Source of the DNA: a virus
Taxonomy: Duplodnaviria > Caudoviricetes
Direction: 5' to 3' (one strand)
DNA length: 52,315 nucleotides
IMG/VR virus record: IMGVR_UViG_3300043174_000068
Location: 1-52,315 of that record
The notes beneath the pieces are model-generated. The model worked only from the letters and a program-made list of their open reading frames with translations. It was not told the origin of the DNA and searched no databases. The translations under genes and the position numbers were made by a program. This document shows positions 635-51,464 of the stretch, in pieces. How positions within the stretch are numbered: the stretch's first letter is position 1; every line of letters begins with the position of its first letter.

Positions 635-635
635 T

Positions 636-1427: not shown

Positions 1428-1435
1428 AAACTTTT

Positions 1436-2173: not shown

Positions 2174-2182
2174 GGAGGTCAA

Positions 2183-2779: not shown

Positions 2780-2781
2780 AT

Positions 2782-4067: not shown

Positions 4068-4103
4068 AAAATAGGTGGTTTCTTATAACCACCTATTTTT
4101 TTT
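4068..4103 (+). terminator. Rho-independent terminator
   Basis: AAATAGGTGGTT-tcttat-AACCACCTATTT followed by a T run. Confidence 0.85.
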
Positions 4104-4111
4104 GGAACAAA
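4101..4111 (+). promoter_or_regulatory. Putative late promoter motif (variant TTTGGAACAAA)
   Basis: One mismatch to the recurrent TTTAGAACAAA motif, just upstream of a structural gene. Confidence 0.55.
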
Positions 4112-4129
4112 AAAATAAAGGAATATAAT

Positions 4130-5455
4130 ATGCCAGAATCAGTACAACTACATGAGCAACAACAGAAAGGAGAAGGATATTCCGCCGTTAGAACTTATAA
4201 GATTAAAACAAAAATTAAAGATATGGAATATACTAATGATTTAGTTTCTCTTACAATAGTTTCAACTTTAGCATCTGCATATCAAATGTTTTTTATATCT
4301 CTGTTTGTTGATCCCAACGACATTATTCTCAATACTTTATTTGGAGGAGATCCAATAATTATTGAGTTATCTATGTTAAGAGAGTTAGGAATTCCAGAGA
4401 GTACAATTAACTTTGAACTTATGTATTTAACATCTGATTTTAAATTTGCTGAAAGATCACAAAAATCAGGAGCTTCAGAGGAAGAAGTAAACTGGGAAAG
4501 AACTGTTATGACCATTCATGCAGTTCCTAAAGATGCTTATAAAACTATGGCTACTTTAGTAAATGATGTTTTTATTGGTTCTACTTTAAGAAGCATAGTT
4601 GGTTCCCTTGCATCAAAAGTTGGAGCTAAACTTGATTATGATTCAGCAGGAGAAAATACAACTAGTGTTGATCAAATATGTATTCCACCAACTACATTTT
4701 ATAAAATTATTAAAGAAGCTGGAGTAAATAATGAAGATATATTTGATGGATATTTAGATAAAAGATTCGGATTGTTTGAAGGAGTTGCTGGAGTATTTTG
4801 CAACCATGATAATACAGTATATGTTAAAAATCTAACTGAAAGAATTAAACGAACCCAAGAGTTTGTTATTTATCAATTAGCTGGAATGTCTTCGGAAGAA
4901 AAAGAAACAACAATACAAAAAATTGAAGATGAAGTAGATGCAGGAAAAGCTTACTATACATTTAATATTATTCAAAGTGAATATTATGCAAATGCAAAAT
5001 TCGCTACAATTTCTAGTGATATTAAGCATATAGTTAAACCAGCTAAAAAATTGTTCACTGTTATTAGTCAAAATTTAGAAGATATAGCAAAAAATAATTC
5101 GTTGATAGCTATGTCTAATAATCTAACACCAAACTTCTATTTGAATCAATTAGTAAATAGAACTAGATATATGAATGAAGATACTGGTTATGAAGATAAT
5201 ACTACTTTGTTTACGTCAATGTTATCTAAAAGTTTGTCTGACTTATCAACTATATCTTTTGATATTGAAAGAAATCTAGATATCAAACATGCATTTAATA
5301 TTGGGGATAGTGTAAAATTCAAACCAATGACAGTTTCTTATGCTGCACTAGAAGGAAAATATATTTTATTTAGATCTGAAATAACTTTTAGTAGAAGAAA
5401 TAATTGGATCTCAACCGGAAACATTACATTAATTAGAAGCAATAAAACAAGTTAG
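4130..5455 (+). CDS. Putative baseplate hub / tail protein (T4 gp27 / P2 gpD-like)
   Basis: Beta-rich pattern with C-terminal IGDSVKF...LEGKYIL.RSEITF typical of hub proteins; structural context. Confidence 0.5.
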   Translation: MPESVQLHEQQQKGEGYSAVRTYKIKTKIKDMEYTNDLVSLTIVSTLASAYQMFFISLFVDPNDIILNTLFGGDPIIIELSMLRELGIPESTINFELMYLTSDFKFAERSQKSGASEEEVNWERTVMTIHAVPKDAYKTMATLVNDVFIGSTLRSIVGSLASKVGAKLDYDSAGENTTSVDQICIPPTTFYKIIKEAGVNNEDIFDGYLDKRFGLFEGVAGVFCNHDNTVYVKNLTERIKRTQEFVIYQLAGMSSEEKETTIQKIEDEVDAGKAYYTFNIIQSEYYANAKFATISSDIKHIVKPAKKLFTVISQNLEDIAKNNSLIAMSNNLTPNFYLNQLVNRTRYMNEDTGYEDNTTLFTSMLSKSLSDLSTISFDIERNLDIKHAFNIGDSVKFKPMTVSYAALEGKYILFRSEITFSRRNNWISTGNITLIRSNKTS

Positions 5456-21754: not shown

Positions 21755-22792
21755 GTGAAAAAAGAAATCAAAGTATGCACAGGATCAGTTAAAATATTTT
21801 CAAATGATAATTATAGAATTATCTTTGATATGAAAAATGGAGTTGAGATTCTAACTGGAATCAATGGAAAAGAAGATCCATTCGTTTTAGAACTTCCTTC
21901 TTTATTAGATATTGGAATAATGGGAACCTGCAAAAGGAAGTGCCCTTTCTGTTATCAGGGTCATGAAGATAAACCAAATATGAAACTTGAAGATTTCAAA
22001 TCAATAATTAATCAAGTTAGCCATCACGTTAATCAAGTAGCTCTTGGTGGACGAGGCGATCCAAATAAGCATGAAAACTTCAAAGAGATTATTGAATATT
22101 GTAGAAATAGCAACATTATTCCAAACTATACAACGAGTGGTATTGATCTAACAGATGAAGAAGTTGAAATCTCAAAGATGTGTGGTGCAGTTGCAGTTAG
22201 TGACTATAATCAGAAATTTACTTTTGAGGCAATAAAAAAGTTTACAAAAGCTAAGATTAAAACTAATATTCATAAGATTTTTTCTAATGCATCATATCAA
22301 GAATGCTTGCAAATTCTTTATGGATATAATCCTTACAAAAGTAATATTTCAAATAGAGGCGGAATTGTATATAATATTGATCTCAAGAAAATCAATGCAG
22401 TAATCTTCTTATTATTCAAACCTCAGGGTGCTGGAAAGAATGTTGACTTAAGACCATTGCCTCATCAAATTAAATTATTTTCTGAATTAGTGGTAAGCAA
22501 GAAACGAAGAAAATGTAAAATTGGTATGGATAGCTGTTTAGTTAATCATGTCTTAAAATATGTAGAAATGGAAAAAGTACAAAGAATGTGTGTTGACACA
22601 TGTGAAGGTGCCAGAATGTCAGCATACATTTCTCCAGATATGAAATTTATGCCATGTAGTTTTGCAAACTCAAATTCAGAAACAAAATTGACAGATACAA
22701 ATTTACAGGAGATCTGGTTGAATGGGCATTCTTTCTCGTATTTTAGAAAAGTGTTATCTAAAACTTCCAACACCTGTCCAATCGAATTATGA
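21755..22792 (+). CDS. Radical SAM protein with SPASM/twitch-like C-terminus
   Basis: CKRKCPFC (CxxxCxxC), GG.GDP..H, C.GAR...ISPD....PCSF and terminal CP; GTG start with AGGAG RBS. Confidence 0.9.
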   Translation: MKKEIKVCTGSVKIFSNDNYRIIFDMKNGVEILTGINGKEDPFVLELPSLLDIGIMGTCKRKCPFCYQGHEDKPNMKLEDFKSIINQVSHHVNQVALGGRGDPNKHENFKEIIEYCRNSNIIPNYTTSGIDLTDEEVEISKMCGAVAVSDYNQKFTFEAIKKFTKAKIKTNIHKIFSNASYQECLQILYGYNPYKSNISNRGGIVYNIDLKKINAVIFLLFKPQGAGKNVDLRPLPHQIKLFSELVVSKKRRKCKIGMDSCLVNHVLKYVEMEKVQRMCVDTCEGARMSAYISPDMKFMPCSFANSNSETKLTDTNLQEIWLNGHSFSYFRKVLSKTSNTCPIEL

Positions 22793-22802
22793 AAGGTATA
22801 AA

Positions 22803-23348
22803 ATGAATATGAATAATGACGACCCAACTGATCATAGAGATTTAAATATGTCTATTGATAATTATAATATATGCGAAGTAGTTGCAGTTCCGCAAAATTT
22901 TGATATTAAAAGTTTCTTATCTATGAGAGAACAAATGGGTATGTTTAAAGCAAAAAATATTGATTCAAAATTATTAGAAGCTGTCTCAATGGCAGTAACA
23001 TGTTCTCCGATTTTTTCTAGTATGAATAATGCATTAATAAACCCATATGTATTTTCTTATTTTCTTCATATTTTAGATGAATTAGGACTTATCATTAAAA
23101 ATTATCATAATCCGATTAGAAAAAATTATCGTGATAAACCGTATTTAGAATTTTGTCAACGCTGGGAAGAAGGAAGATATACTTATATACGAGGGCAAGA
23201 AGTTAAAAGAATTAGTTTTATAGTTATAAATATTGTACAACTTTTTAGTCAAGATGTAATTGATGAAGCAAAGAAAGCTCTAGAGGATATTGAAAAATTT
23301 CAAACCGATGCAAATAAAAAAATGGAGGAGATGTGCTCAAATACATAA
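22803..23348 (+). CDS. Hypothetical protein (start moved from 22722 to ATG 22803)
   Basis: AAGG upstream of in-frame ATG 22803, after the radical SAM stop codon. Confidence 0.65.
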   Translation: MNMNNDDPTDHRDLNMSIDNYNICEVVAVPQNFDIKSFLSMREQMGMFKAKNIDSKLLEAVSMAVTCSPIFSSMNNALINPYVFSYFLHILDELGLIIKNYHNPIRKNYRDKPYLEFCQRWEEGRYTYIRGQEVKRISFIVINIVQLFSQDVIDEAKKALEDIEKFQTDANKKMEEMCSNT

Positions 23349-23515
23349 TAGGATTAATGTTGTTAGGAGCTCTTATTCTTACTATTATGGAAGTATTTTC
23401 TGGAACTAAATGGGTATGGTGGTTTGAGATAATATTGTGCTGGTTATATTATTTGATGGTAATGAATCCAACTTTAAAATATCTTCAAAATAAACAGAAA
23501 GGAACACCGCAGTGA
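23333..23515 (+). CDS. Small two-TM membrane protein
   Basis: GGAGGAG RBS; two hydrophobic segments. Confidence 0.7.
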   Translation: MLKYIIGLMLLGALILTIMEVFSGTKWVWWFEIILCWLYYLMVMNPTLKYLQNKQKGTPQ

Positions 23516-23982
23516 AAATTTTCATTACACTATTGTTTGCACTATTTCTTATAGTGCCCAATGTATTTGCTCAAAAAAGTATTGGAGAAGTTGAAGCGGT
23601 ACAACGTATTATTGAAGGAAATGATAGAATTAGAGTTATCCGTATTGATGACCCCGATAATCCTTTCGTAAGTATTTATTTTACAAGTATTAAAAGTGGT
23701 CAATTCTTTGCATTAGCTGATCCAAGTAATACTTCTATTGCAACCAGACTTACCAGCCCTGTTCCTGTTGATAAAGATGGAAAGCAGATTGTAAATAAAA
23801 GCACCCGTCTTGAGATTGCAAGTGTATCAAAATCAATTGGAACTAAGGAGATGAAGATCGCTCGGTGGTATGATGCAGAAAAGAATACTCTTGTTTATTT
23901 GGTCTACACAGACAAATGGATTGGAGGGTCATTGAAACATTCTATTTCTGCTGTTGCTCTTGGATTTCCGCCTGATAAGTAG
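23512..23982 (+). CDS. creA: CreA-family exported protein
   Basis: Signal peptide; DDP, DPSNTSIA, YDAEKNTLVYLVYTDK.IGGS.KHSISAV match CreA motifs. Confidence 0.85.
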   Translation: MKIFITLLFALFLIVPNVFAQKSIGEVEAVQRIIEGNDRIRVIRIDDPDNPFVSIYFTSIKSGQFFALADPSNTSIATRLTSPVPVDKDGKQIVNKSTRLEIASVSKSIGTKEMKIARWYDAEKNTLVYLVYTDKWIGGSLKHSISAVALGFPPDK

Positions 23983-29624: not shown

Positions 29625-29663
29625 AAGAGAGGGAGGCTTTTGGTCTCCTCCCTCTCTTTTTTT
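29625..29663 (+). terminator. Rho-independent terminator
   Basis: AAGAGAGGGAGG-cttttggtct-CCTCCCTCTCTT followed by a T run. Confidence 0.85.
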
Positions 29664-30870
29664 AGCTAAATATTGGCTTGAAAATTTCTGGTTTATCTAT
29701 TGAATGTTTGTAATGTCTCCAATCTTCTGGATCTTGTTTTGGCCACATATAAAACTTTGCATTAAAGTTTCTTAAAAGACCATTTCTTGAAATATCAGCT
29801 TTAACAATATAACCACCAACTTGAGGGTGTAACCCAAGCCTTTTCAAATAATTACTTTGACCTTCAAATGTTCCGCATTGCATCCCAAAAATTGAACCAA
29901 ACATAGCTTGAACTTGAATATGTAAATGCCCAGCCAAAACAAATCTAACACTTGGTTTCTCTTTAAAATCTCTTGAAATATTTGCTAGTTCATTATATAC
30001 TACTTGCTCAATTCCTTTTTGAAGTCTGTAAGAATATGAATATGGCGCACCTCCTGCTGGGTGCCACATTTTTAAATCGACACCCGGTAGTATTGGAATA
30101 TCAGCATCGTCAAACCCCACATAGTGAAAATCAGGTCGCTGCGCCTCAATAGCCAATAGGCAATTGTGCCCACCTCCTCTTTTGATAAACGAGTAATCAT
30201 GATTTCCACCTAGTACATACCACTCAAACCCTTTTGGAAGATTGAGTATAACAGATTCCTCTTGTTCTTCTGCTGATAATGCATATAAGTCGAATTGCTG
30301 TCCTGGATATACATTGTATCCTGCACAAAGATCACCAGGAGAAAAGATATATTTTACTCCTTTCTTTCTGCATATTTCTGCAAACTCATTTAGTGCTGTT
30401 ATCTGGCATGCTTTTGATCCGAAGTGAATATCTGAAGCTACTCCAAAGATAATTTCTTTATCTTCAAGGGGGGATTCTATAACTTCACCTTCTGAAGTTA
30501 TATCTGTACTTAATATGATGTTTCTATCATCACAAACAATCTCATAACCTTTCTTTCTAAATTGTGTAATCAAATCAAAGATTTCATTAGGAGAACAACT
30601 TAATTGCTCACAAAGTTCATCTCCTGAAACACTTCTTTTCTTTTCTAGAATATTAATAAACTTTTCTTCTATACTTTCTCTAGTTTCTCCTGCATCTGAA
30701 ATCTCTTTTTCTGTTAATGCTTTTTTAACTCTTGATACATACTTATAAAAAGACTTGATAGGGTATGAATAATTAAAATTTAAACTTGCTTGTTCATAAA
30801 TTTGTTTTGTTGATGTTCCATTTAAAATTTCTTGCTTTACAAAATCTAACAACCCTGGATATATTGTCAT
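29662..30870 (-). CDS. Calcineurin-like metallophosphoesterase with N-terminal HTH region
   Basis: DIH, GD, GNHD, H and GHLH motifs; winged-HTH-like SGDELCEQL..S...I..LI..FRKKGY. Confidence 0.9.
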   Translation of the reverse strand: MTIYPGLLDFVKQEILNGTSTKQIYEQASLNFNYSYPIKSFYKYVSRVKKALTEKEISDAGETRESIEEKFINILEKKRSVSGDELCEQLSCSPNEIFDLITQFRKKGYEIVCDDRNIILSTDITSEGEVIESPLEDKEIIFGVASDIHFGSKACQITALNEFAEICRKKGVKYIFSPGDLCAGYNVYPGQQFDLYALSAEEQEESVILNLPKGFEWYVLGGNHDYSFIKRGGGHNCLLAIEAQRPDFHYVGFDDADIPILPGVDLKMWHPAGGAPYSYSYRLQKGIEQVVYNELANISRDFKEKPSVRFVLAGHLHIQVQAMFGSIFGMQCGTFEGQSNYLKRLGLHPQVGGYIVKADISRNGLLRNFNAKFYMWPKQDPEDWRHYKHSIDKPEIFKPIFS

Positions 30871-39264: not shown

Positions 39265-42192
39265 TTATGATACTCTATAAAAATCAATTCTAGCATTTCT
39301 AATGGCACAAGCAGCACCAGATGTTACTCTTTTATATTGTATTGAAAATGTTTTATCTGTTCCAGTTAATGAAACAAATCCCATAGCTGCAAATCCAAAA
39401 TAGTTAGTTGAATTATTAGTTTGTTGTAATTGTTCTCCATATACTACAGTATCTGTTGTATTTATAAGTTGAACTGCAACTTGTCTATTATTTGAATCTG
39501 CATTAAATTCAGCTATACCTAATATATAATATGTGCCGCTAGGCAAACCTGATCCAGCAGTTAAGGAAACTTTTGTTTGATATGTGTCGCTTGTAGTAGA
39601 TGATACTCCTAGAGATTCTACATAGGAATGCCCGCCTCCATGTACTGATGAAGTTCCACTTGAACCACTGGTTCCTGAACTACCTGATGTACCACTTGTT
39701 CCATTTATTCCTGATGTTCCTGATGATCCACTGGTTCCAGAACTTCCTGATGATCCTGATGATCCACTAGATCCTGAACTACCAGAAGTCCCCGAAGAAC
39801 CCGAAGTTCCGCTTGAACCTGATGTGCCAGAGCTCCCAGACGATCCAGACGTTCCTGAACTTCCGCTAGTCCCAGAAGATCCTGATGTGCCTGATTCACC
39901 AGACGTTCCCGAAGAACCCGAAGTTCCGCTTGAACCTGAAGTTCCACTACTTCCAGACGAACCCGATGACCCTGAAGTACCTGAACTTCCAGACGACCCA
40001 GAACTTCCAGAAGTTCCTGAAAGTCCACTTGTACCTGAGCTTCCTGATGTTCCGTCATTTCCATTTACTCCTGATGTACCCGAACTACCTGAAGTTCCAG
40101 AAGAACCACTAGTCCCTGAGCTTCCAGATGTTCCGCTAGATCCAGATGTATTAGCTGCTCCAGAAATCGTTAATTTATTAGAAACAACTGAAGTAGTAAT
40201 ACCACTAACTCCAACAATATTTAAAATATCATTTGAAGATTGAGCATTGATAACTCCAGTATCACCTTTAACTTGAGTAAATTTCATTCCTGGAACATAA
40301 GTTGGTACACCTAGTTGAAGTCTTATTTGATCTAAATAGAATCCAACTCCAGCTCCACCATAATAATTAAACATTAAAATTTCTAACTTATCAACTGATT
40401 GACTTGTTAGGCCAAAAGACGATTTTGGTATTGAAATAGTTTGATAAGTTGTAGTATTTGAACTTACAAAACCATTATATCCGTCTAGTATATAAGCATA
40501 ATATCCTTGAGGAGAAGACCCATTCCAAAATCTCAAAGTCATATATTTTCTATTTGCCCAATATGCTTTGGATCTAATATGTAATTCAAGACTATCAACA
40601 GTTGACATACTAATAGGAGATGATGCAGTAAGAGTTACTTTATCTCCTTCAATTGCAGCAGTACCTTCAATATCTTTGGTTCCACTAAATGGATTATTTG
40701 TTGAATTTTTAACAATTCTTGTAGTATTTGATACTGCTGCCCATTCAGTAGGAGTTCCAGCATCTTCCATATATATTGCAACTATAGTAGTACTTGGAGT
40801 ACTTGACCCAGCTGAAACAGTAACAAATGTAATTTCAACTTGAGTTGCTTCATCTATTGAAGGTTTAAGTGGATTAGCAGATGGGGTTCCTGTAATCTTT
40901 CCAATATTACCATTATTATCAGCATAAATAACATCTATTCTATCATTAGTAGGATCAGCAGAATCTAAAGTAATTAAACCTCCAGTACTAGTATAATAAA
41001 TTCCATTTATTAAATATTCAAGAGCGCTTACATCATATGTTAATCCAGAACTCCATGTTGCTCCTCCAGATAGTAATCCATTCCCTCCAGTAAATAAGTT
41101 ATCAACATATGTTTTACTTGCTAATGGAATCCATACTGCTGCTCCAGTAGTATCAACAACCATTTCAAATATTTGATTTGTTGCTGTATTAATCCAATTA
41201 GAACCTATATGGTATCCATCGCCGGAATCATCATTTGCAGTAGGATTAACTGTAGCAGAATAATTATTAAAACTAGAAGTACCAGATGTTCCCGAAGTTC
41301 CATTTGAACCACTAGTTCCTGAACTACCTGAAGTTCCTGAAAGTCCACTTGTACCTGATGTACCCGATGTGCCATTTATACCATCATCCCCTTTTATACC
41401 AAAACAAATAGCACAATCATTCTCAGTTACAAAACCAGAATTACTATCTTCATATGTTACTTGATATTCAACATAACCAGTAGAAATATCGCCAATTAAA
41501 TTTATTGCATCAATATTATAAAATGCAAATCTATCTGGATCATTTTTTTGCTGAATATAAATTCTATCATTAATTTTAACTAAAGTTGTTAAAAAATTTC
41601 CAAGAGGTTTAGAATCATAATCTAGAACATCAACATATATTTCTGTTACTAAAGATAACGTAACACTATTAGTTCTGAAATAACCATCTCCAGGATCAGC
41701 TTGTGTTATAGTGTTATTATATCTCCAGATATTACAGTTAGCACCCTCTTGCCCACTTGTTCCGCTACTACCACTAGTTCCAGATGTACCACTACTTCCA
41801 GATGTTCCAGCATCTCCAGAATAATTTTTCCAGTTACCACTAACTGAATCATATTTTAAAATATCATTATTTTCAGGGGTATCAACATCAAAAATAACTC
41901 TACTGGTTCCATCTGTTCTTGCATATTGTAAGTGATCATCAATATTTAATCCAGAAAGATCTCCATGAGCAATAGATTCTTCTGCACTTTCTATAGGATT
42001 TCCATATTCGTCTTTTACAGTAATCCAACCATTATCAATAGCTAATTGAACATCATCTGAATTTCTAATTAATTCCTGATTGAAATCTTGCTCCAAATCA
42101 TAATTAGTTGTAGGATGTGCATATTCTCTATCGCCTAGATCTGGAAAATCAACTGGATTTTTAGTTCCAGTGGTAGTAATTAAAAATCCCAT
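39265..42192 (-). CDS. Fibre protein 1 with (Gly-Ser/Thr-Ser)n repeats and probable carbohydrate-binding domains
   Basis: Three Gly-X-Y tracts; N-domain shared with 42192-44237; jelly-roll-like central domain ending FYLDQIRL. Confidence 0.8.
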   Translation of the reverse strand: MGFLITTTGTKNPVDFPDLGDREYAHPTTNYDLEQDFNQELIRNSDDVQLAIDNGWITVKDEYGNPIESAEESIAHGDLSGLNIDDHLQYARTDGTSRVIFDVDTPENNDILKYDSVSGNWKNYSGDAGTSGSSGTSGTSGSSGTSGQEGANCNIWRYNNTITQADPGDGYFRTNSVTLSLVTEIYVDVLDYDSKPLGNFLTTLVKINDRIYIQQKNDPDRFAFYNIDAINLIGDISTGYVEYQVTYEDSNSGFVTENDCAICFGIKGDDGINGTSGTSGTSGLSGTSGSSGTSGSNGTSGTSGTSSFNNYSATVNPTANDDSGDGYHIGSNWINTATNQIFEMVVDTTGAAVWIPLASKTYVDNLFTGGNGLLSGGATWSSGLTYDVSALEYLINGIYYTSTGGLITLDSADPTNDRIDVIYADNNGNIGKITGTPSANPLKPSIDEATQVEITFVTVSAGSSTPSTTIVAIYMEDAGTPTEWAAVSNTTRIVKNSTNNPFSGTKDIEGTAAIEGDKVTLTASSPISMSTVDSLELHIRSKAYWANRKYMTLRFWNGSSPQGYYAYILDGYNGFVSSNTTTYQTISIPKSSFGLTSQSVDKLEILMFNYYGGAGVGFYLDQIRLQLGVPTYVPGMKFTQVKGDTGVINAQSSNDILNIVGVSGITTSVVSNKLTISGAANTSGSSGTSGSSGTSGSSGTSGSSGTSGVNGNDGTSGSSGTSGLSGTSGSSGSSGSSGTSGSSGSSGSSGTSGSSGTSGSSGTSGESGTSGSSGTSGSSGTSGSSGSSGTSGSSGTSGSSGTSGSSGSSGSSGSSGSSGTSGSSGTSGINGTSGTSGSSGTSGSSGTSSVHGGGHSYVESLGVSSTTSDTYQTKVSLTAGSGLPSGTYYILGIAEFNADSNNRQVAVQLINTTDTVVYGEQLQQTNNSTNYFGFAAMGFVSLTGTDKTFSIQYKRVTSGAACAIRNARIDFYRVS
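39648..40149 (-). repeat. Longest Gly-Ser/Thr-Ser coding tract (roughly 55 triplets)
   Basis: 9-nt periodic degenerate repeat; Gly at every third residue. Confidence 0.95.
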
Positions 42193-44237
42193 TAGACTCT
42201 CCTTCTAAATAATACCTCAATTAATGGTCTATTAATATTTGTACCTGACATATACATTTGAACTCTATCGCCTGCATTAAAATCAGCATTTATGGTATAG
42301 TCATAGTTAGAATTAGAAGCAGTCATAGATAATGAAGCTAAAACTGTAGCAGCATCATTCCTTCTTATTTGTGCAGTCCATGTCTGTGATGATCCACCAC
42401 TAATTGAAATACCAACTAATGTACAGTCATAAGGTAAAGTATAACCATTTGTATTAGTAGGAACACCATCATAACCGTATAAATATTGGTTAGTTACATT
42501 ATTTGCATTTCTACTTGCTCCAAAATTAATTAATGCTACACCAAGAGTTTTTCCTCTATCAGGATCATCATATACTACTTCATTTGAAGTTGAATCCCAA
42601 TATACTCCATCTGCACTTGTACCTGAAGTACCTGATGAACCAGATGTTCCATTAACACCGGATGTGCCAGAACTTCCAGAAGTTCCGCTTGTTCCATCAA
42701 CACCAGATGTACCAGAACTTCCAGATGATCCGCTAGTTCCTGAACTTCCTGATGTACCAGAACTGCCACTTGAACCTGAAGTTCCAGAACTGCCAGATGT
42801 TCCACTTGATCCTGAACTTCCTGATGTTCCTGATGTTCCTGATGAACCACTAGTACCATTAATACCTGATGTTCCGCTTGAACCAGATGTTCCTGATGAT
42901 CCACTAGTTCCCGAAACACCTGATGTACCTGATGTACCAGCACCACCAACAAAAATAGGAGTGGTTAAATATGATGCATGAGTTACCCCTTCAAAATAGA
43001 AAGTAACATCATTATTTGATGTTGAATCTACATATACTTTCAATCTTAGTCTATCTGTTGAATCCATATCCTCATTTAAAGGTTGAATGACATCCCACTC
43101 AACAACGCCTGCTGAGGTATTACTAAAAATAGATGATTCTCCAGAAGCAATTAAAGTTTCAACATTAGATTGATTTAACTTATAAATCTCAAATTTTAAT
43201 TGAGCATCTGCTGTATCAACTGATGCATAAAATTTAGCAGTCCAAACACCAGCTGGCATCATTTCAATTCCTGGATCTGTTGCAGTTGTATCCCAGGTTG
43301 ATACTAAAGTTTCGCTACTAACATTTGATAAAGTAATTGTATTTTCTGGAAGTTCACCAGGATTCCTTGCTAACAAATAATTGCTTACTGCTGTTTCATC
43401 ATGTAAATAATAAATTGATCCTCTTGGAGTAGCTCCAGAAGTTCCAGAAGTTCCACTTGACCCTGAAGTACCAGAAGTTCCAGAAGTTCCACTTGACCCT
43501 GAAGTACCAGAAGTTCCACTTGACCCTGAAGTACCAGAAGAACCTGATGAACCACTAGTTCCGGATGAACCAGAAGTTCCTGAACTTCCACTTGAACCAC
43601 TTGTACCGGATGTACCGCTCGATCCAGATGAACCAGATGTTCCTGATGATCCACTAGTACCACTTGAACCACTTGTACCTGAACTACCTGAAGTACCAGA
43701 AGAACCTGATGAACCACTGGTCCCTGATGTACCACTTGATCCTGAACTACCTGAAGTACCAGATGAACCAGATGTTCCATCAATACCAGATGTTCCCGAA
43801 GTTCCACTTGAACCACTTGTACCTGAACTACCAGATGTTCCTGATGTTCCTGATGGGCCACCATCTGTGTTGTACCAAACATCTAGAGTACCATCATATC
43901 TAAGAATTTGGTTATTAGTTGGTGCATTAACATCTAATATAACTCTAGATGTTCCATCTGTTCTTGCATACTGTAGGTGATCATCTTCCTCTAAACCTGA
44001 TAAACCACCATGTGCTACTGCTTCGGTTACATCTGTAATTGGATTACTAAATTCGTCAACAACAGTAATATAGTTATTATCAATAGCATATTGAACATCA
44101 TAAGATGCTCTAATCTCTTCTGGTTTATATTCTTGTTCAAGATCATAACTAGTAGTAGGATGTGGATATTCTCTTCTACCCAAATCATTGAATACTACTG
44201 GGTTTTGAACCCCTGTGGTAGTAAATATAAAAGCCAT
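42192..44237 (-). CDS. Fibre protein 2 with (Gly-Ser/Thr-Ser)n repeats
   Basis: Two long tracts; N-domain like fibre 1, middle and C-domains like fibre 3. Confidence 0.85.
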   Translation of the reverse strand: MAFIFTTTGVQNPVVFNDLGRREYPHPTTSYDLEQEYKPEEIRASYDVQYAIDNNYITVVDEFSNPITDVTEAVAHGGLSGLEEDDHLQYARTDGTSRVILDVNAPTNNQILRYDGTLDVWYNTDGGPSGTSGTSGSSGTSGSSGTSGTSGIDGTSGSSGTSGSSGSSGTSGTSGSSGSSGTSGSSGTSGSSGTSGSSGTSGSSGSSGTSGTSGSSGSSGTSGSSGTSGSSGSSGTSGSSGTSGTSGSSGTSGTSGTSGSSGTSGTSGATPRGSIYYLHDETAVSNYLLARNPGELPENTITLSNVSSETLVSTWDTTATDPGIEMMPAGVWTAKFYASVDTADAQLKFEIYKLNQSNVETLIASGESSIFSNTSAGVVEWDVIQPLNEDMDSTDRLRLKVYVDSTSNNDVTFYFEGVTHASYLTTPIFVGGAGTSGTSGVSGTSGSSGTSGSSGTSGINGTSGSSGTSGTSGSSGSSGTSGSSGTSGSSGSSGTSGSSGTSGSSGSSGTSGVDGTSGTSGSSGTSGVNGTSGSSGTSGTSADGVYWDSTSNEVVYDDPDRGKTLGVALINFGASRNANNVTNQYLYGYDGVPTNTNGYTLPYDCTLVGISISGGSSQTWTAQIRRNDAATVLASLSMTASNSNYDYTINADFNAGDRVQMYMSGTNINRPLIEVLFRRRV
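43445..43534 (+). repeat. Three exact copies of the 27-mer CAGAAGTTCCACTTGACCCTGAAGTAC
   Basis: Copies at 43445-43471, 43481-43507 and 43508-43534. Confidence 0.85.
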
Positions 44238-44239
44238 AA

Positions 44240-45886
44240 TTAAAATCTCCTTCTGAAGAATAGAGTTACATGTGGATAGTCTATTGACGTTCCATTACAG
44301 TAAATTTGAACTCTATCTCCAGCATTAAAGTCTAAATCTTTTGTATTATCATAATTTGTATATTGATTAGTTATAGTTAATGAATCTAATACTGTTACAA
44401 CTCCATTTTTTCTAACTTCCGCAGTCCATGTTTGAGTATTTAAATTCTCTGACATAGACATTGCTATTAATGTTGCATCCCAAGGAAGAACAAACCCATT
44501 TAAGTTCCAAGGAGTAGCTCCTTCTCCATATAAGTAAAGATTTGTTGCTGCGTTTGAATTTCTTCCAGCATCTTGTTGAATTATACCAGCACCTAAATTT
44601 TTCATTCTTACTGGATCATAAAAATATAGATCTCCAGAAGTAGAATCAATATAAATATTAGGAGTTAATCCTGAAGTTCCACTTGTTCCATCAATTCCTG
44701 ATGTACCCGATGACCCACTAGTGCCTGAACTTCCAGATGTTCCGCTTGTTCCTGCAGCTCCAACAAATATAGGAGTAGTTAAATATGAAGCATGTTCACT
44801 GCCTTCAAAATAAAAATCTACAGCTATAGTTGAAGTAGAGTCTGTAATAGCATATACTTCATATCTAATTGTACTATCAGGTTCAAAATCTATATCTTGT
44901 GTTTGAGTATAAATCCAATTTAATTGTTGAGGCGAAACAGTTGAAGTAATTTCGGGAGATGTTGAAGTAAGAATTAATACAGATGTTGAATCAGTTACTT
45001 TATATGCTCTAACAGCTAATCTAGTATTATAATCAGCATTGCTTACCACCGCCCAATGAACAAAATTCCAGATTCCAGAATTTAAAACATCTAAATCAGG
45101 ATCACCAGAATTGGTTTCCCAAACATCTAGTAATGTTGCATTTGTAGTATCTACATAATATGTATTAACTACCTCTGGAAGCTGTCCTGGTTCTCTAGCT
45201 AGTAGGTAATAACCACTAGTTGAGGTTTCATCATGTAAATAATATATAGCTCCTCTAGGAGTTATTCCTGATGTTCCACTTGAGCCTGATGAACCGCTTG
45301 TTCCACTTGAGCCAGATGTTCCAGAATCTCCGGATGTTCCTGAAGTACCTGATGTACCAGATTCGCCTGACGAACCACTTGTTCCAGAAGATCCAGATGA
45401 CCCAGAACTGCCGCTGGTACCGGATAAACCTGACGAACCACTTGTTCCCGAACTACCACTAGTTCCTGAAGAGCCTGAGGTACCAGATATTCCAGACGAA
45501 CCTGAGCTTCCTGATGTTCCACTACTTCCGCTAGATCCTGAATTACCTGACGTACCAGAAGAGCCAGAAGTTCCAGACGATCCTGAAGTTCCATCATTTC
45601 CACTAACCCCCGACGTACCAGAAGTACCAGAACTACCACTTGATCCAGAACTTCCTGATGTTCCACTAGTACCAGAAGTACCTTCAATAAACAAATCCCA
45701 GTATGATTGCCAACTAGCTCCTACACCTGGTTCTGTTGTTGAATCTGCACAATGATCTTGAGTACAAACATATACATCACCATTATTCTGAACTAAATCA
45801 TTTACTACATAACATGACCCGTCAGCCCAAGGACCTTGCCAATTAAAAGGTGATCCATCTGACTGAATAATAGTATCTCTTAGCAT
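44240..45886 (-). CDS. Fibre protein 3 with CBM5/12-like N-domain and (Gly-Ser/Thr-Ser)n repeats
   Basis: W.GPW.....Y.VNDLV...G..YVC...H......PG....W...W chitin-binding-type module; two repeat tracts. Confidence 0.85.
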   Translation of the reverse strand: MLRDTIIQSDGSPFNWQGPWADGSCYVVNDLVQNNGDVYVCTQDHCADSTTEPGVGASWQSYWDLFIEGTSGTSGTSGSSGSSGSSGTSGTSGVSGNDGTSGSSGTSGSSGTSGNSGSSGSSGTSGSSGSSGISGTSGSSGTSGSSGTSGSSGLSGTSGSSGSSGSSGTSGSSGESGTSGTSGTSGDSGTSGSSGTSGSSGSSGTSGITPRGAIYYLHDETSTSGYYLLAREPGQLPEVVNTYYVDTTNATLLDVWETNSGDPDLDVLNSGIWNFVHWAVVSNADYNTRLAVRAYKVTDSTSVLILTSTSPEITSTVSPQQLNWIYTQTQDIDFEPDSTIRYEVYAITDSTSTIAVDFYFEGSEHASYLTTPIFVGAAGTSGTSGSSGTSGSSGTSGIDGTSGTSGLTPNIYIDSTSGDLYFYDPVRMKNLGAGIIQQDAGRNSNAATNLYLYGEGATPWNLNGFVLPWDATLIAMSMSENLNTQTWTAEVRKNGVVTVLDSLTITNQYTNYDNTKDLDFNAGDRVQIYCNGTSIDYPHVTLFFRRRF

Positions 45887-45948
45887 TAAATAGTGTCCTC
45901 ATATTCTTTCAAAAATGCAGATCAATGTAGGAATCTCATGATTTATAT

Positions 45949-45959
45949 TTTGTTCTAAA
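45949..45959 (-). promoter_or_regulatory. Putative late promoter motif TTTAGAACAAA
   Basis: Exact consensus upstream of the fibre operon. Confidence 0.65.
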
Positions 45960-45979
45960 TTTCTAGATGAATTAAACCG

Positions 45980-46468
45980 TTATAAAATGTCGATAGACTT
46001 GAGATATTCCATTGATTTCTCTTTATTTTTCAAAAACATATCAAAATCAAAGAAATATACCCCATTATTCTTTTTTAGAATCTGTTCCCCCAACCAAAGG
46101 TATTGATAGATAGAATCTAATATAGCTTGGTTTTCATCTTTAGAATGTAACCTCATGAGTTTTGATCTGAATGTATCGGGAATATTTCTAACTATAACTA
46201 GCCACTTTATAGAATAATTAACGTTTGTAAAGTAAGAATCTATAAGCATTAAATCTGGGTATAATCCTGCATGTGGTATACTCCGTCTAAATACTACTTT
46301 CTCAACTTCATCTGGTACTACTTCCCTAATATCACATCCTTCAACAAATCTGTCTAGCTCTTGAGCATGAGCCCATTGTCCCCAATAACCATTCTCTATT
46401 AAGAATTGAGTTGTGCCTCTTGTACCAGAACTTTCAGGCCCAAGAACAAAAACAAGTTTCTTTCTCAT
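45980..46468 (-). CDS. Sulfotransferase-like P-loop protein
   Basis: VFVLGPESSGTR (5'-phosphosulfate-binding-loop-like) and LVIVRNIPDTFRS (3'-phosphate-binding R...S-like); 4-nt overlap with the upstream glycosyltransferase gene. Confidence 0.6.
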   Translation of the reverse strand: MRKKLVFVLGPESSGTRGTTQFLIENGYWGQWAHAQELDRFVEGCDIREVVPDEVEKVVFRRSIPHAGLYPDLMLIDSYFTNVNYSIKWLVIVRNIPDTFRSKLMRLHSKDENQAILDSIYQYLWLGEQILKKNNGVYFFDFDMFLKNKEKSMEYLKSIDIL

Positions 46469-49254
46469 ATTAACCCGCCCTTCTTCATTTGTTCAATAAC
46501 CATATCAGGGGTAATCTTTTTAGTACATTCAAATTGCCTATCTGTACCTTTCTGTCTAGGGCACCAGTTCCATTCGCCTCTATTGAAATTATTATTAACA
46601 TCATTAAAACATCCATGACAAACATCTTCATTTATAACTCTTATAATATTAGAAGAAAACTCTGCTGTTTTCTTACTGAATCCTGAGATCATAACTACAG
46701 GTTTCCTTAATGCCCAAGCTAACCAAGCAGGGCCAGCAGAAACTCCCATGAAGAAATCAGAATGATAAATATTATTCATAGTCTCATTAATAGTAAGACC
46801 AGTCTTTTTTATGACTCTAACTAGATTTGTTTCTTCTTTACTAATAACCATAACTTCATAACCAATTTCTTTTAAATCATCAACAACAGTTTGCCATCCT
46901 TCTAGATAGTTCCAAAATTTACATTGGAATGTTGAAAACTCAGATAGTGTAACATATTTCCCTTCAATTGGTCTCTCTTTAGGAACGAAATCTATATCTG
47001 TAACTATCTCTTTATATTCAAGCCCCAATGTATCTGATGCAACTTGCTGTAATGGGACAGTTCTCCAGTCGACTTTATTCTTCCACATGTTTCCTTCATA
47101 ACACCCAATTGTATATGATGCATATAAATTACCAACTCCAGTTCCAGGTTTTACAAATTCAAGATTAGAATATGTTGGGTGTTTTTCAAATAAGTGATTC
47201 CAAAATGTTGATACTACAACCTTGCACTCATTTTTCTTTCTAAACTCATCTGCATATGGTAACCATGCAATAGTATCGCCAAGAGATTTAGAATCAAAAC
47301 TGATTAAGATCTTTTTGCCTCTAGCATCATATTTATGAGTATATTCTAGTTTACCATTTCGTTTTATAGTAATAGTATAATTTGAAAAATATTTTCTATG
47401 AGGTCTAGTCCAATTATTTGCTCTTAAAGTAGTTTGATGAATACTAGAATTATTGTCTAAATCTAAAACATCAACAAGATAGAAACTAGGATCATCATTA
47501 TCTCCTCTAATTTCTATAAAAGGTCCATCAACAAAATGAGTTGTATAACTTGGTCTACTTCTTAAAGGCTCTCTTACTTTTGTTGAAATACATTTGATTT
47601 CTTCTCCATACCCATTATCATTTAATTGAGATGACTCTACTTTTAATCCCAAACAAGTTAACAACCATTTTAAACTTCCAGCTGTAAACCCACAGTAATG
47701 TGAGTTTCCTGGGTGTGATTGACTACCATAAATTCTGTGAGTATGAAACCATTTTTCTTCATCTTTTGCATTTAACCAAACTTTAACTTCTCTTTCTAGA
47801 TTAGGAACTCTAATCTCAAGCTTACCACCGATCTTTAAAACACGTTTCCATTCTTCTATTACTTCATATACATCATTTATACCAATATGCTCAAAAATAT
47901 GTGAAGCATAAATTTCATCTACATATTCTGATTTGAATGGTAACACCGTAAAGTCAGAACATAAATCTACTTGCCCTGTATTATTAAACCGATCAATATT
48001 AATATAATCAGGACGAATGTCATTACCACAGCCCAAATTGAGTTTAATCTTTTTGCCGCTTGATACTGTTCTAGGAACTTCATGATATTTATTCCTGACT
48101 AGATCATCAATGATTTCTTTCGCCTTTAATGCAGCATTATCCCAAGAGTAAGCTTCACGAATATATTTAGATAGTTTAACAGCTCGATCTCTCAAATGAT
48201 TTTCTTTAGCTGATACCATTACTTTTGCAAGATGATCAAAGTCTGGTTCGCCCCAAACTCCAATATCAAAACCATCTCCTAACATGAAAACATTTTCTGG
48301 TTTCTTAAAACTAGGAACATCAACTAATAATGAGACTCCATCTGCAAATTCCAATTGGCCACTACAGTTGGAACATATAGTTGGAATACCACAAGATATA
48401 GCTTCCATTAATGGAAGATTCCACCCCTCAGATCTTGCACAGCTTAAAAAACAGTCTCCTGCTTGTAACCATTTAGTATATTCATCATCACTAGGAAAAT
48501 GTATTACTTTAATATTTGGATGTTCTAATCCATAATGTTTTAATCTTTCTTCTGTAGAGTTCATTTTATCAACAGGAAATGGATTGTCAGCAGACAAAAC
48601 TAGATAAGTTAATTCATCATCTTTGAATGTATCATAGAATGTTTTAACAATTTCAGTAACAGATTTTCTATAATCCCATCTTCCAAAGAATAAATAAATA
48701 AATGCATTTATTGGAATGTTATATTTTTTACATAATTCCATTCTAACAAAATGACGTTCATTACTAACTAAAGGATAAAATCTTTTTCCATCAACTCCCT
48801 CTGGAACTACTTTGACTCTATTTTCTGGGTATCCTTGTTCTATTGTACATCTACGTTGCCACTCAGTTGGACACCAAAATTGATCATATTGTAAAATTCT
48901 ATTAAAGAATTCTGGAATCTGTTTTGTTGCTTCCCAGACATTATACGCAATCATTGGGCTTTCATATTTATCATAAAAATAATAATGATGACTTTCATTA
49001 AGAACCAGATTAACATATGTAGTATCTTTATCTTTAATAAATGGAGTTCCAATTTTAAACGGATAGTCGTTCCATTTTTGTTCAATCACCATATCATATT
49101 GAGCTTGTGTTAAATACGACAAATCAGGAGTGTAAGTATAATTTCTAACTTTTGTTGGGTAATGCTTATTGAGGTGGGTAAAAAAATTTCTAGAATGATT
49201 GTTATAACCTGTAAAACCAAGAAATGAAGTGTGACCAATTACACCAATTTTCAT
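46465..49254 (-). CDS. Tri-domain enzyme: GT4 glycosyltransferase + class I SAM methyltransferase + TibC/Aah-type autotransporter O-heptosyltransferase-like domain
   Basis: GT4: GRWDYRK and EGWNLPLMEA; MTase: KLNLGCG, SHIFEH, RVLKIGG.LEI.VP; BAHT-like: SLGDTIAWLPY...FRKK, CKFWNY.EGW, FFMGVSAG.AWLAWA..KPVVMISGF, CHGC..WCP..FECTK. Confidence 0.85.
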   Translation of the reverse strand: MKIGVIGHTSFLGFTGYNNHSRNFFTHLNKHYPTKVRNYTYTPDLSYLTQAQYDMVIEQKWNDYPFKIGTPFIKDKDTTYVNLVLNESHHYYFYDKYESPMIAYNVWEATKQIPEFFNRILQYDQFWCPTEWQRRCTIEQGYPENRVKVVPEGVDGKRFYPLVSNERHFVRMELCKKYNIPINAFIYLFFGRWDYRKSVTEIVKTFYDTFKDDELTYLVLSADNPFPVDKMNSTEERLKHYGLEHPNIKVIHFPSDDEYTKWLQAGDCFLSCARSEGWNLPLMEAISCGIPTICSNCSGQLEFADGVSLLVDVPSFKKPENVFMLGDGFDIGVWGEPDFDHLAKVMVSAKENHLRDRAVKLSKYIREAYSWDNAALKAKEIIDDLVRNKYHEVPRTVSSGKKIKLNLGCGNDIRPDYINIDRFNNTGQVDLCSDFTVLPFKSEYVDEIYASHIFEHIGINDVYEVIEEWKRVLKIGGKLEIRVPNLEREVKVWLNAKDEEKWFHTHRIYGSQSHPGNSHYCGFTAGSLKWLLTCLGLKVESSQLNDNGYGEEIKCISTKVREPLRSRPSYTTHFVDGPFIEIRGDNDDPSFYLVDVLDLDNNSSIHQTTLRANNWTRPHRKYFSNYTITIKRNGKLEYTHKYDARGKKILISFDSKSLGDTIAWLPYADEFRKKNECKVVVSTFWNHLFEKHPTYSNLEFVKPGTGVGNLYASYTIGCYEGNMWKNKVDWRTVPLQQVASDTLGLEYKEIVTDIDFVPKERPIEGKYVTLSEFSTFQCKFWNYLEGWQTVVDDLKEIGYEVMVISKEETNLVRVIKKTGLTINETMNNIYHSDFFMGVSAGPAWLAWALRKPVVMISGFSKKTAEFSSNIIRVINEDVCHGCFNDVNNNFNRGEWNWCPRQKGTDRQFECTKKITPDMVIEQMKKGGLI

Positions 49255-49283
49255 ATTAGTAAACCTTTCGCGTGTATTTACAA

Positions 49284-49294
49284 TTTGTTCTTAA
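49284..49294 (-). promoter_or_regulatory. Putative late promoter motif (TTAAGAACAAA)
   Basis: One mismatch to consensus; upstream of the glycosyltransferase operon. Confidence 0.55.
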
Positions 49295-49296
49295 TA

Positions 49297-49680
49297 TTAT
49301 TTTATTAAACCTTTTCTATATCTAATCCAAGTATACCAACCAAAAACACATACTGTATAATACATAGTATATCGTTTAAGTTTATTAACTTTTAAAACCT
49401 CCATTGCTTCTAAAAAGATTTTATCACTTTTGAATTTACTATATAAACCTGTTCTATATAAATAATCATGAACTACAGCAGCTTTTCCGTGCTCATCAAT
49501 AGGGGAAATTATTGGCCAAAATATTCGCGGAACACTCGCAAAGTCTGTTACGAATCCTATTGGGATATAGATGATTGTTTTACTAGGGTATTCTCCAACA
49601 TGATATTCAAAAGGTTTGTAAACTCTCCATTTGTTTTTTCCAATTAATTCTCCGACAAATGGTTGTGTAAATTGACTCAT
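49297..49680 (-). CDS. DUF1353-family protein
   Basis: IP.GFVTDFASVPR.FW, AAVVHDYLY, D.IFLEAM. Confidence 0.9.
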   Translation of the reverse strand: MSQFTQPFVGELIGKNKWRVYKPFEYHVGEYPSKTIIYIPIGFVTDFASVPRIFWPIISPIDEHGKAAVVHDYLYRTGLYSKFKSDKIFLEAMEVLKVNKLKRYTMYYTVCVFGWYTWIRYRKGLIK

Positions 49681-50843: not shown

Positions 50844-51464
50844 CTAATCAGAGGTTTTTATTTTTGTTTTTACTTTTATTTTTGGGCCACTATGCTTCAA
50901 TAATGCTAAATAAGTTTCTTGATCAGCTCTTGGATTAGTTTTTCCAAATACAGTTTCATTTCCTTGATTTAATATTCCTTGTTCATCTTCATCAATAATA
51001 CTTTCCGCCTCTCCCATTAGAGGATTATAACTAGGCATATTTGATTGATCCGAGTTATCAACTTTTAAAAATACAGTTTTCTTTTTATTTTTATTTGAAT
51101 AGGTATTGGGATCTACTTTTACATCCTCAGTTTTCCATTGTGATACTGGTTGTTCTAAATTTTTATTTACAGTATAATCTAAAGTAATTTCATCCCCTGA
51201 TTTAATTGGTTTTAATGCATAAACCCTATAACATCCATCTTCCTCCTTTTTGGAAATAGCGTTTGGGTTTTGTGAATGATTTAACTTTTTACCAAATTCT
51301 GTAACATATAAATCTCCATTTGTAAGTGAATAAATATGAGTATTAATAAAATCATCTTTTTCAAAATCATCTTTTGAAAACGCACCAACTCCATGTATTG
51401 ACGATTTCTTTATTTCAAAGTTATCATCTGTTTGTATTTGCTCTAGATAATATTTTATTTTCAT
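50844..51464 (-). CDS. SET-domain protein (lysine methyltransferase-like)
   Basis: IKKSSIHGVGAF, LNHSQNPN and ALKPIKSGDEITLDY SET motifs. Confidence 0.9.
   Translation of the reverse strand: MKIKYYLEQIQTDDNFEIKKSSIHGVGAFSKDDFEKDDFINTHIYSLTNGDLYVTEFGKKLNHSQNPNAISKKEEDGCYRVYALKPIKSGDEITLDYTVNKNLEQPVSQWKTEDVKVDPNTYSNKNKKKTVFLKVDNSDQSNMPSYNPLMGEAESIIDEDEQGILNQGNETVFGKTNPRADQETYLALLKHSGPKIKVKTKIKTSD

Follow-up and report, generated by a model that had tools for sequence, protein, structure and literature searches.

The closest described counterparts of the system reported here are the glycosylation pairs TibC–TibA and Aah–AIDA-I of E. coli, in which the gene for a bacterial autotransporter heptosyltransferase (BAHT) lies beside that of a long, repetitive, Ser-rich protein with many acceptor sites per substrate (PDB 4RAP/4RB4; PMC4358343). 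We found a similar arrangement in a phage genome, the complete IMG/VR virus record IMGVR_UViG_3300043174_000068, whose full 52,315 bases we refer to as the window. The window encodes a 929-amino-acid (aa) enzyme that joins a GT4 glycosyltransferase, a methyltransferase and a TibC-like domain, and downstream of it a 162-aa protein and three collagen-like fibre proteins rich in Ser and Thr (Table 1). The TibC-like domain is homologous to the catalytic domain of TibC and has the same Asp, Thr/Lys, Trp and Cys residues. We consider it probable, from sequence and gene context, that this cassette glycosylates Ser and Thr in the tracts of the phage's own fibres, and that the GT4 domain, the methyltransferase and the 162-aa protein elaborate the glycan.

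The 929-aa enzyme differs from TibC and Aah in its fused GT4 and methyltransferase domains, and two trees assign it to another clade, across a branch with a support of 100. Its neighbour is a proline-free, collagen-like Gly-Ser/Thr-Ser phage fibre rather than an AIDA-type beta-helix adhesin. Judged by its sequence, the enzyme is a true relative of TibC that belongs to a sister group, with an altered nucleotide pocket and a different neighbour.

Glycosylation of virions by phage enzymes has a precedent in mycobacteriophages (Freeman et al. 2023, PMC10527164, as cited in PMC12582341 and PMC12619734), where glycosyltransferases encoded among the structural genes likewise modify the phage's own virion proteins. 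There, capsid and tail-tube subunits are modified at their C-termini, rather than fibres at hundreds of Ser/Thr residues in collagen-like tracts, and glycosylation was demonstrated experimentally, whereas the present cassette is known from its genes. Phage virion glycosylation and the action of BAHT enzymes on autotransporters are thus both already described.

Outside phages, the exosporium protein BclA of Bacillus anthracis and the cuticle collagen of Riftia have collagen-like Gly-X-Thr repeats that carry O-linked sugars. In the Riftia collagen, the glycosylated Thr stands in for hydroxyproline as a stabiliser of the triple helix. These cases involve other organisms and enzymes and no phage, and no BAHT-type transferase is known in them; the mycobacteriophage virion glycosyltransferases are not known to be of the BAHT type either.

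A full-text literature search returned no paper joining phages, collagen-like proteins and heptosyltransferases, and none on the cultured Microcystis phage Mel-JY01, which has a comparable locus (see below). Papers that mention both autotransporter heptosyltransferases and bacteriophages deal, judging by their titles and abstract openings, with glycosylation in bacteria and with GmhA, and not with a pairing of enzyme and fibre. The window adds the triple fusion of GT4, methyltransferase and TibC-like domains; a sulfotransferase-like gene that is coupled to the enzyme gene and is itself linked with glycosyltransferase cassettes of phages; the split of the enzyme family into an AIDA-associated and a collagen-associated clade; a loss of Arg286 that is specific to one clade; and an association between enzyme and repeat that is asymmetric.

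The enzyme and its fibre-gene neighbours

The genes of the block lie on one strand, with a spacer of 93 nucleotides (nt) between the 162-aa gene and the first fibre gene and gaps of at most 2 nt among the fibre genes. The original prediction, made from the letters of the sequence, had described the 929-aa protein as a triple fusion, and all three domains indeed exceed their family cut-offs. The GT4 domain scored 43.2 bits against PF00534 (cut-off 26.4; E = 4e-11) and 41 against PF13692 (cut-off 27), and matched phrog_2170 across residues 15–385 at E = 2e-31. The methyltransferase domain scored 35.8 bits against PF08241 (cut-off 21.2) and 33.2 against PF13489 (cut-off 27). The strongest match was that of the TibC-like domain to TIGR04414, which NCBIfam names 'autotransporter strand-loop-strand O-heptosyltransferase': 277.2 bits against an equivalog cut-off of 200 (E = 1.9e-82), covering model positions 30–372 of 374. 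The same domain aligned with TibC itself (PDB 4rap) over TibC residues 45–378 at E = 1.7e-54.

Table 1. Features of the glycosylation and fibre block and related features of the window
Feature	Position	Strand	Basis or remark
Whole block	39265-49680	(-)	Order: DUF1353 gene, 929-aa enzyme, 162-aa gene, spacer, three fibre genes
127-aa DUF1353 protein	49297..49680	(-)	PF07087 E 1e-27; phrog_1158 E 4e-36, PHROG label 'tail assembly chaperone'
AGAACAAA core within TTAAGAACAAA	49284..49291	(-)	30 nt 5' of enzyme-gene ATG
929-aa enzyme, GT4 + S-adenosylmethionine (SAM) methyltransferase + TibC/Aah-like O-glycosyltransferase	46465..49254	(-)	Family matches per domain
GT4 (GT-B, 'group 1') domain, residues ~15-385	48100..49212	(-)	PF00534, phrog_2170
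Class I SAM-dependent methyltransferase domain, residues ~400-545	47620..48057	(-)	PF08241, PF13489
TibC/Aah-like (BAHT-type) domain, residues 593-924	46483..47478	(-)	TIGR04414, 4rap
162-aa sulfotransferase-like (P-loop fold) protein	45980..46468	(-)	ATG overlaps stop of 929-aa gene as ATGA; translational coupling
AGAACAAA core within ATTTAGAACAAA	45949..45956	(-)	63 nt 5' of first fibre gene ATG
548-aa putative fibre protein, 58 G-X-Y triplets (residues 69-209, 376-408)	44240..45886	(-)	Pfam Collagen, PHROG 'tail fiber'
681-aa putative fibre protein, 85 G-X-Y triplets (residues 127-270, 431-541)	42192..44237	(-)	Pfam Collagen, PHROG 'tail fiber'
975-aa putative fibre protein, 78 G-X-Y triplets (residues 126-152, 265-306, 684-848)	39265..42192	(-)	Pfam Collagen, PHROG 'tail fiber'
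HAD-type phosphatase, 164 aa	21121-21615	(-)	Headed by AGAACAAA motif; PHROG 'phosphoheptose isomerase' E 2e-23

In TibC, Asp110 is the catalytic base, Thr226 and Lys230 serve the beta-phosphate, Trp305 the heptose O4, and Cys339, 342, 358 and 370 form an iron finger (PMC4358343). The 4rap alignment and a table of sites show that the 929-aa enzyme retains the equivalents of Asp110, Thr226, Lys230 and Trp305 and all four cysteines. At the position of Pro300, which confers D,D-heptose specificity on TibC, it has Ser, as does AAH (PMC4358343).

The three collagen-like proteins hit many 'tail fiber' families of PHROG, and Pfam Collagen (PF01391) matches them with E-values from 6e-24 to 9e-35. From these matches and from the gene neighbourhood we infer that they are virion fibres. 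Together they hold 221 G-X-Y triplets, with Ser or Thr at 393 of the 442 X and Y positions, which bears out the earlier description of three fibre proteins carrying hundreds of Ser/Thr residues in Gly-X-Y tracts. The Y position is Ser in 200 of the 221 triplets, and the longest uninterrupted tract runs for fifty-five. Pro, whose abundance at X and Y is the helix-stabilising trait of collagen, occurs there once (1/442). The fibre genes are paralogues with a mosaic structure: the N-terminal 126 residues of the 681-aa protein recur in the 975-aa protein at 63 per cent identity, and the middle and C-terminal parts of the 548- and 681-aa proteins are 39 per cent identical.

Association across phages and bacteria

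For the TibC-like domain, a search of 1.84 billion representative proteins returned 1,461 relatives with E-values of 0.001 or below, among them roughly 1,100 at 1e-10 or below and 745 at 1e-30 or below; the majority of the best 150 are fusion proteins 500–2,000 aa long. Among IMG/VR viral contigs, a single-protein scan found two close relatives only, and a scan that used an alignment of thirteen sequences as query reached further, with at least 586 confirmed relatives, jumbo phages included. For the analysis of loci we took the best 80 of these viral relatives with flanks of up to 10 kb, clustered at 70 or 90 per cent identity. A Ser/Thr-rich G-X-Y open reading frame (ORF) lies in the flank of 29 of the 38 clusters at 70 per cent identity and 38 of the 55 at 90 per cent, and within 2 kb of the enzyme gene in fifteen of the thirty-eight. 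The largest of the neighbouring repeat ORFs are huge (e.g. 2,690 aa with 763 triplets).

As a matched control, we searched the whole of twenty-seven long records (5.16 Mb) for (GGNWSNWSN)x5 and used the reversed pattern as a null. The pattern was present in 24/27 records and its reverse in none. Loci of +/-10 kb around the enzyme gene hold 10 per cent of the bases and 1,340 of the 1,809 tract matches. A tract falls inside the enzyme locus in twenty-one of the twenty-four records, or 14/17 clusters by hand count (binomial P = 2e-6 at p = 0.259, the largest locus share). In the three misses, the tract is about 10 kb off across the terminally repeated ends of the record, 600 bases outside in the same ORF, or about 40 kb off. 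Two other long records carry additional tracts 38–130 kb away. BAHT-like domains and (G-[ST]-S)n genes therefore do co-occur across phage genomes, a test named in the original prediction, with the tracts concentrated at the enzyme gene. A scan that started from the tracts (eight triplets) found at least 157 stretches, and a TibC-like ORF lay in the flank of 10/66 distinct contigs. Seen from the enzyme, the link with the repeats is strong; seen from the repeats, it is much weaker.

The same layout of enzyme and fibre genes was found in Mel-JY01, in two contigs whose enzyme domain is 86 per cent identical to that of the window (L002 and L003), and in a further contig (L238). Of forty-six lineage representatives, thirty-two have a fused GT4 domain, fifteen a fused methyltransferase and ten both. 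These counts indicate that a module of two transferases, often with a methyltransferase, is the rule. Such a pattern would suit a glycan with two or more sugars and, in some cases, a methyl group; any order of action and any targets assigned to the domains are conjectural.

In Mel-JY01 (PP395634), the enzyme WWT39291, annotated as 'methyltransferase FkbM', is a 1227-aa fusion, 39 per cent identical over 86 per cent of the 929-aa enzyme. It is flanked by (GTSGSSG)n ORFs. Unlike the enzyme of the window, it is longer and has extra middle domains, and no homologue of the 162-aa protein was found in the 20 kb examined. One of its repeat neighbours is an 805-aa (GTSGSSG)n collagen-like ORF at 635-3052 (+). 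Over the same repeats, the deposited record gives a coding sequence at 739-2298 (-) for a Pro/Glu/Val-rich 'hypothetical protein', which is probably a call on the wrong strand. A second repeat ORF (9152-9986) appears to be split over two frames.

We constructed phylogenies from 128 TibC-like domains: forty-seven phage lineage representatives, eighty bacterial loci (the best 80 of at least 503 relatives, with one genome per prokaryote species) and Aah from an E. coli plasmid. FastTree and IQ-TREE (LG+G4) trees, both unrooted, show a single branch with a support of 100 that separates two groups. The classical group comprises fifty bacterial rows, Aah among them, and none has a Ser/Thr-rich G-X-Y ORF nearby. 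The clade of the 929-aa enzyme comprises seventy-eight rows, of which fifty-three have such repeats (34/47 phage and 19/31 bacterial rows; the nineteen are also the total for all eighty bacterial loci). Fisher's exact P for this split is 8e-17, a value that overstates the independence of the rows. On the E. coli plasmid, the aah gene lies directly upstream of AIDA-I, and among twenty-two classical loci with a large same-strand ORF directly downstream, that ORF has AIDA repeats in nineteen and an autotransporter beta-domain as well in seven. With AIDA repeats beside one clade and Gly-X-Y repeats beside the other, each TibC-like clade adjoins its own class of Ser-rich repeat protein.

The catalytic residues do not follow this split. 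Asp110 is kept in both clades in all but one row (77/78 in the clade of the 929-aa enzyme). Within that clade Lys230 and Trp305 are present in 78/78 rows and the iron-finger cysteines in 77–78/78, and they are conserved in the classical clade too. Arg286, which in TibC contacts N1 of the adenine and is given as the basis of ADP-sugar specificity (PMC4358343), is Arg in 46/50 classical rows and in 15/78 rows of the other clade, where Thr (35), Val (15) and Ile (10) are found instead. The beta-hairpin thumb (Phe265/Val266), through which TibC builds its dodecamer (PMC4358343), also differs: the thumb region has nineteen residues in the classical clade and 12–13 in 46/78 rows of the other.

Some of the bacterial loci deserve separate mention. 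In six metagenome-assembled genomes of gammaproteobacteria (Arenicellales, Acidiferrobacterales and unclassified; L248, L249, L251, L255, L256, L259), a stand-alone TibC-like gene has small (130–230 aa) Gly-Ser/Thr-Ser proteins on one or both sides. These look like a bacterial version of the pairing, in DNA that is cellular, prophage or contaminant. In three alphaproteobacterial loci of the classical clade (L312, L324, L299), the large downstream ORF ends in Hint_2 and not in an autotransporter beta-domain, and two of these ORFs showed no AIDA repeat at a threshold of E = 1e-8. The Hint_2 ending may reflect a different route of export or processing for the substrate.

The coupled 162-aa protein and the proposed function of the cassette

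The 162-aa protein has thirty-one homologues, all of them unnamed and without a Pfam domain. An alignment of twenty-eight members shows an invariant N-terminal G-P-x-S-x-G-x-R-G (including P11, S13, G15, R17 and G18), invariant R61, R62, S63, P65 and H66, and R94...S102, whose spacing may be that of the 3'-phosphate-binding motif of sulfotransferases. P11, S13, G15, R17, G18, H66, R94 and S102 are candidate residues of the 5'-phosphosulfate- and 3'-phosphate-binding motifs. Its AlphaFold model has a predicted local distance difference test (pLDDT) score of 92.9. In a feature search of a protein atlas, the nearest named clusters were small, often viral sulfotransferases (score 0.94, 175/256 features); Sulfotransfer_3 is found on 32 per cent of the members of the nearest cluster, and the ten best family-bearing matches all belong to the family or clan of the top one.

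The fold prediction and the atlas neighbours suggest that the 162-aa protein is probably a sulfotransferase. That it is instead a P-loop kinase, phosphorylating a sugar, a nucleotide or the fibre, is a possible but distinctly less likely reading. It would agree with a Foldseek search of the model, where adenylate kinase came top (E = 8e-5) and sulfotransferases next, and with the Pfam sulfotransferase models, none of which recognised any of the 28 aligned members even with the threshold set at E = 10. Sulfotransferases fill the four best places in VIA-align, however, the named clusters near it in the atlas consist of sulfotransferases about as small as the 162-aa protein, many from viruses, and the loop GPESSGTRGTT lacks the Lys-Ser/Thr pair of a Walker-A motif. 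A profile search against the PDB gave matches at chance level (E = 0.14 and 0.54). The label 'sulfotransferase-like' in the original prediction goes beyond the sequence: it leans on the predicted fold and on language-model likeness, and no sequence family matches.

Among 237 loci, the 162-aa gene was present solely in the window, and a dedicated scan added L238; we therefore rejected it as a constant partner of the TibC-like enzyme. L238 has the layout of the window, in the order DUF1353, a 935-aa GT4, methyltransferase and TibC-like enzyme, a 272-aa ORF without assignment, a homologue of the 162-aa protein (49 per cent identical) and three G-S/T-S fibre genes. Two genes upstream of its glycosylation cassette is a protein with a response-regulator receiver and a PAS domain, at 4097-5416 (+).

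Relatives of the 162-aa protein are coupled to GT4 or GT2 genes in five further distinct places (L239, L240/241, L242, L243 and L244), of which the first three adjoin capsid or scaffold genes. This genomic context supports a role in the modification of glycans. At L239, L240/L241, L242 and L244, the relatives (34–39 per cent identity) overlap GT4, GT2 or FkbM-methyltransferase genes, and L243 has two tandem copies. The cassettes at L239, L240/L241 and L242 resemble the capsid-glycosylation layout described for mycobacteriophages, but occur in other phages. Elsewhere, a relative lies near an epimerase and a TAGT glycosyltransferase (L246) and another between a ligase gene and a capsid gene (L245).

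We propose the following mechanism. In the cytoplasm of the infected cell, the TibC-like domain would take a nucleotide-sugar as donor and glycosylate a large number of Ser/Thr hydroxyls in the proline-free (Gly-Ser/Thr-Ser)n tracts of the three downstream fibres, before or during assembly. The fused GT4 domain would most likely append a second sugar and the fused methyltransferase most likely cap the glycan, while the 162-aa protein would most likely add sulfate from 3'-phosphoadenosine-5'-phosphosulfate or, less likely, phosphate from ATP. The sugars would stabilise and solubilise a triple helix that lacks Pro and give the fibres a hydrophilic coat, which is a guess guided by the precedents of the Riftia collagen and BclA. 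The fibres as acceptors, the identity of the sugar, the order of steps and the biological role are all conjectural here.

Of the corresponding inference in the original prediction, the placing of the enzyme beside its repetitive Ser/Thr substrate is strongly backed by the genomic association; heptose, extension, methylation and sulfation did not gain the same standing. That the GT4 domain extends and the methyltransferase methylates the glycan is plausible, given how often each is fused to a TibC-like domain among the lineage representatives. Heptose is possible by homology. With the loss of Arg286, which reads the adenine, the enzyme might draw on some nucleotide-sugar different from ADP-heptose. 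The HAD phosphatase of Table 1 was rejected as a heptose-pathway gene: NCBIfam and Pfam give generic HAD-IIIA and capsule-phosphatase matches, far below cut-offs, and a part for it in supplying sugar phosphates is a bare possibility.

Several observations weigh against the proposal. TibC recognises a beta-helix and not a collagen-like tract. In the 929-aa enzyme, the position of Arg286 is Thr, and in TibC an Ala mutant of this residue lost all or most of its activity (PMC4358343). Gaps of 7 and 2 residues at TibC 261–267 and 272–273 leave a thumb region of 12 residues, against 19 in Aah and in the classical median, and thumb mutants of TibC are inactive dimers (PMC4358343). No tract lies within the flanks of up to 10 kb in 9 of the 38 enzyme clusters. 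Conversely, a whole-record search of forty-four tract-bearing phage records found a TibC-like gene in twelve (ten above cut-off), with 3/6 among the records that are at least 90 per cent complete, and at nine TibC-negative loci with large tracts, 0/49 neighbouring ORFs match glycosyltransferase families. These last counts led us to reject the idea that Gly-Ser/Thr fibres always sit beside a glycosyltransferase, and the asymmetry implies that such fibres can exist without a TibC-like enzyme. As for the supply of heptose, a GmhA-like gene was found in 2 of the 27 related phage records, below the family cut-off, and a scan of the ORFs of the window against families gave no heptose-pathway enzyme above cut-off. 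The closest relatives, L002 and L003, have a hairpin in place of the 162-aa gene, and P-loop kinases nearly tie with the sulfotransferases in VIA-align. Finally, the evidence for the cassette is of one kind, sequence and genomic context.

The enzyme might instead modify the host surface (lipopolysaccharide, capsule, S-layer or a host adhesin), its place next to the fibre genes being incidental. Serotype-altering phage glycosyltransferases are known (PMC12619734), NCBIfam names show GT4 domains to be common in the synthesis of envelope polysaccharides, and the Pfam GT9 lipopolysaccharide heptosyltransferase model matches weakly, at 21.9 bits against a cut-off of 22. We think this improbable: TIGR04414 scores 277 bits against 15 for models of lipopolysaccharide heptosyltransferases (E about 0.008), tracts are concentrated at the enzyme gene in long phage genomes, the association of enzyme and repeat is specific to one clade, and the enzyme and fibre genes have a motif in common and form a tight operon. 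An equally small chance attaches to an enzyme that glycosylates other virion proteins, with the fibres as mere neighbours in the structural module. The capsid and tail-tube subunits of mycobacteriophages do bear glycans (PMC12582341, PMC12619734, citing Freeman 2023), and in L239 and L240/241 the capsid genes are directly followed by GT4 genes together with relatives of the 162-aa gene. Within genomes, though, the tracts gather at the enzyme gene and not at structural modules generally; bacterial members of the clade are also flanked by small G-S/T-S proteins, at loci where phage modules were not looked for; and the neighbour in the classical clade is a proven class of substrate.

Least probable of all, in our view, is a catalytically dead TibC-like domain that binds the fibres as an assembly chaperone and leaves catalysis to GT4. 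The shortened thumb and the lost Arg286 would suit such a role, as would the 'tail assembly chaperone' label of the upstream DUF1353 neighbour and the stable complex that TibC forms with its substrate (PMC4358343). The near-invariance of the catalytic Asp, Lys230, Trp305 and the iron-finger cysteines across the clade speaks against it, being the pattern expected under selection for catalysis. We also considered a bolder form of the preferred reading, glycosylation of the phage's own fibres, in which the whole clade, common in environmental phages and found in some bacteria too, was retargeted from autotransporter beta-helices to proline-free (Gly-Ser/Thr-Ser)n collagen, dense O-glycans take over the stabilising role of hydroxyproline in the collagen of animals, and the glycan is built in steps from a TibC sugar, a GT4 sugar, an O-methyl cap and a sulfate. 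This version is speculative and, taken as a whole, rather unlikely.

If fibre glycosylation is correct, hundreds of environmental phages would sugar-coat their tail fibres (at least 586 contigs, including jumbo phages, and a cultured Microcystis phage), and virion glycosylation, so far documented for mycobacteriophages, would extend to these phages. An enzyme family known only from the virulence-associated glycosylation of bacterial adhesins would have been put to phage use. Such a coat would matter for the way these phages recognise their hosts, for the mechanics of the fibres, for the stability of particles in water and for recognition by antibodies or predators, and annotations of 'collagen-like tail fibre' would read differently. 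The clades would supply a testable rule, that each BAHT clade stands beside its own class of substrate, and the enzyme would be a compact tool for glycosylating simple Gly-Ser/Thr-Ser repeats. Should the multi-step glycan exist, the fibres would be the first virion glycoproteins of a phage to be described as sulfated.

The promoter-like motif and genome context

The motif AGAACAAA occurs fifteen times in the window, where 5.9 +/- 2.6 copies would be expected; none of 100 shuffles attained fifteen. Eight of the fifteen are intergenic, 8–78 nt 5' of a start codon, in the form (A/T)T(T/A)AGAACAAA. They head the genes for the terminase, a HAD phosphatase, a virion-protein-like product, a zinc-ribbon protein, a phosphoesterase, the enzyme, the first fibre and a SET-domain protein. 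TT(T/A)AGAACAAA precedes both the enzyme gene and the first fibre gene, in agreement with the two consecutive same-strand units, each with a motif at its head, that had been predicted. The motif is conserved before both genes in L002. Given the excess over shuffles, the intergenic placement before start codons and this conservation, AGAACAAA is, as far as sequence can tell, a real promoter-like element. The term 'late-type' that the original prediction attached to it goes too far, with phosphoesterase, HAD phosphatase and SET-domain genes headed by it as well. Scans for sigma-70-type promoters (56 against 68 expected) and for terminators (5 against 4.9 expected) gave no excess over chance.

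Two of the motif-headed genes outside the block deserve mention. The SET-domain protein (206 aa, 50844-51464 (-); PF00856, E = 2e-9) could be a phage protein lysine methyltransferase. The calcineurin-like phosphoesterase (402 aa, 29662-30870 (-)) bears a faint resemblance to the archaeal DNA polymerase II small subunit (NF003118, E = 4e-16, far under the cut-off).

The genome is that of a myovirus, with terminase, sheath and baseplate genes and a G+C content of about 30 per cent. When 20 kb of the window were compared by megablast with 50,697 phage records, no close relative emerged, and the best relatives of the sheath protein are in distant jumbo phages, at 27–30 per cent identity. The DUF1353 gene directly upstream of the enzyme gene, with its 'tail assembly chaperone' family, locates the cassette within a module of tail or fibre genes; a DUF1353 gene likewise precedes the enzyme gene in L238. 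Between the baseplate and sheath genes, on the opposite strand (21755-23982 (+)), are genes for a radical SAM/SPASM protein (345 aa), a 208-aa ORF without a match and a CreA-family protein (PF05981, E = 3e-26), an odd insert for a structural module.

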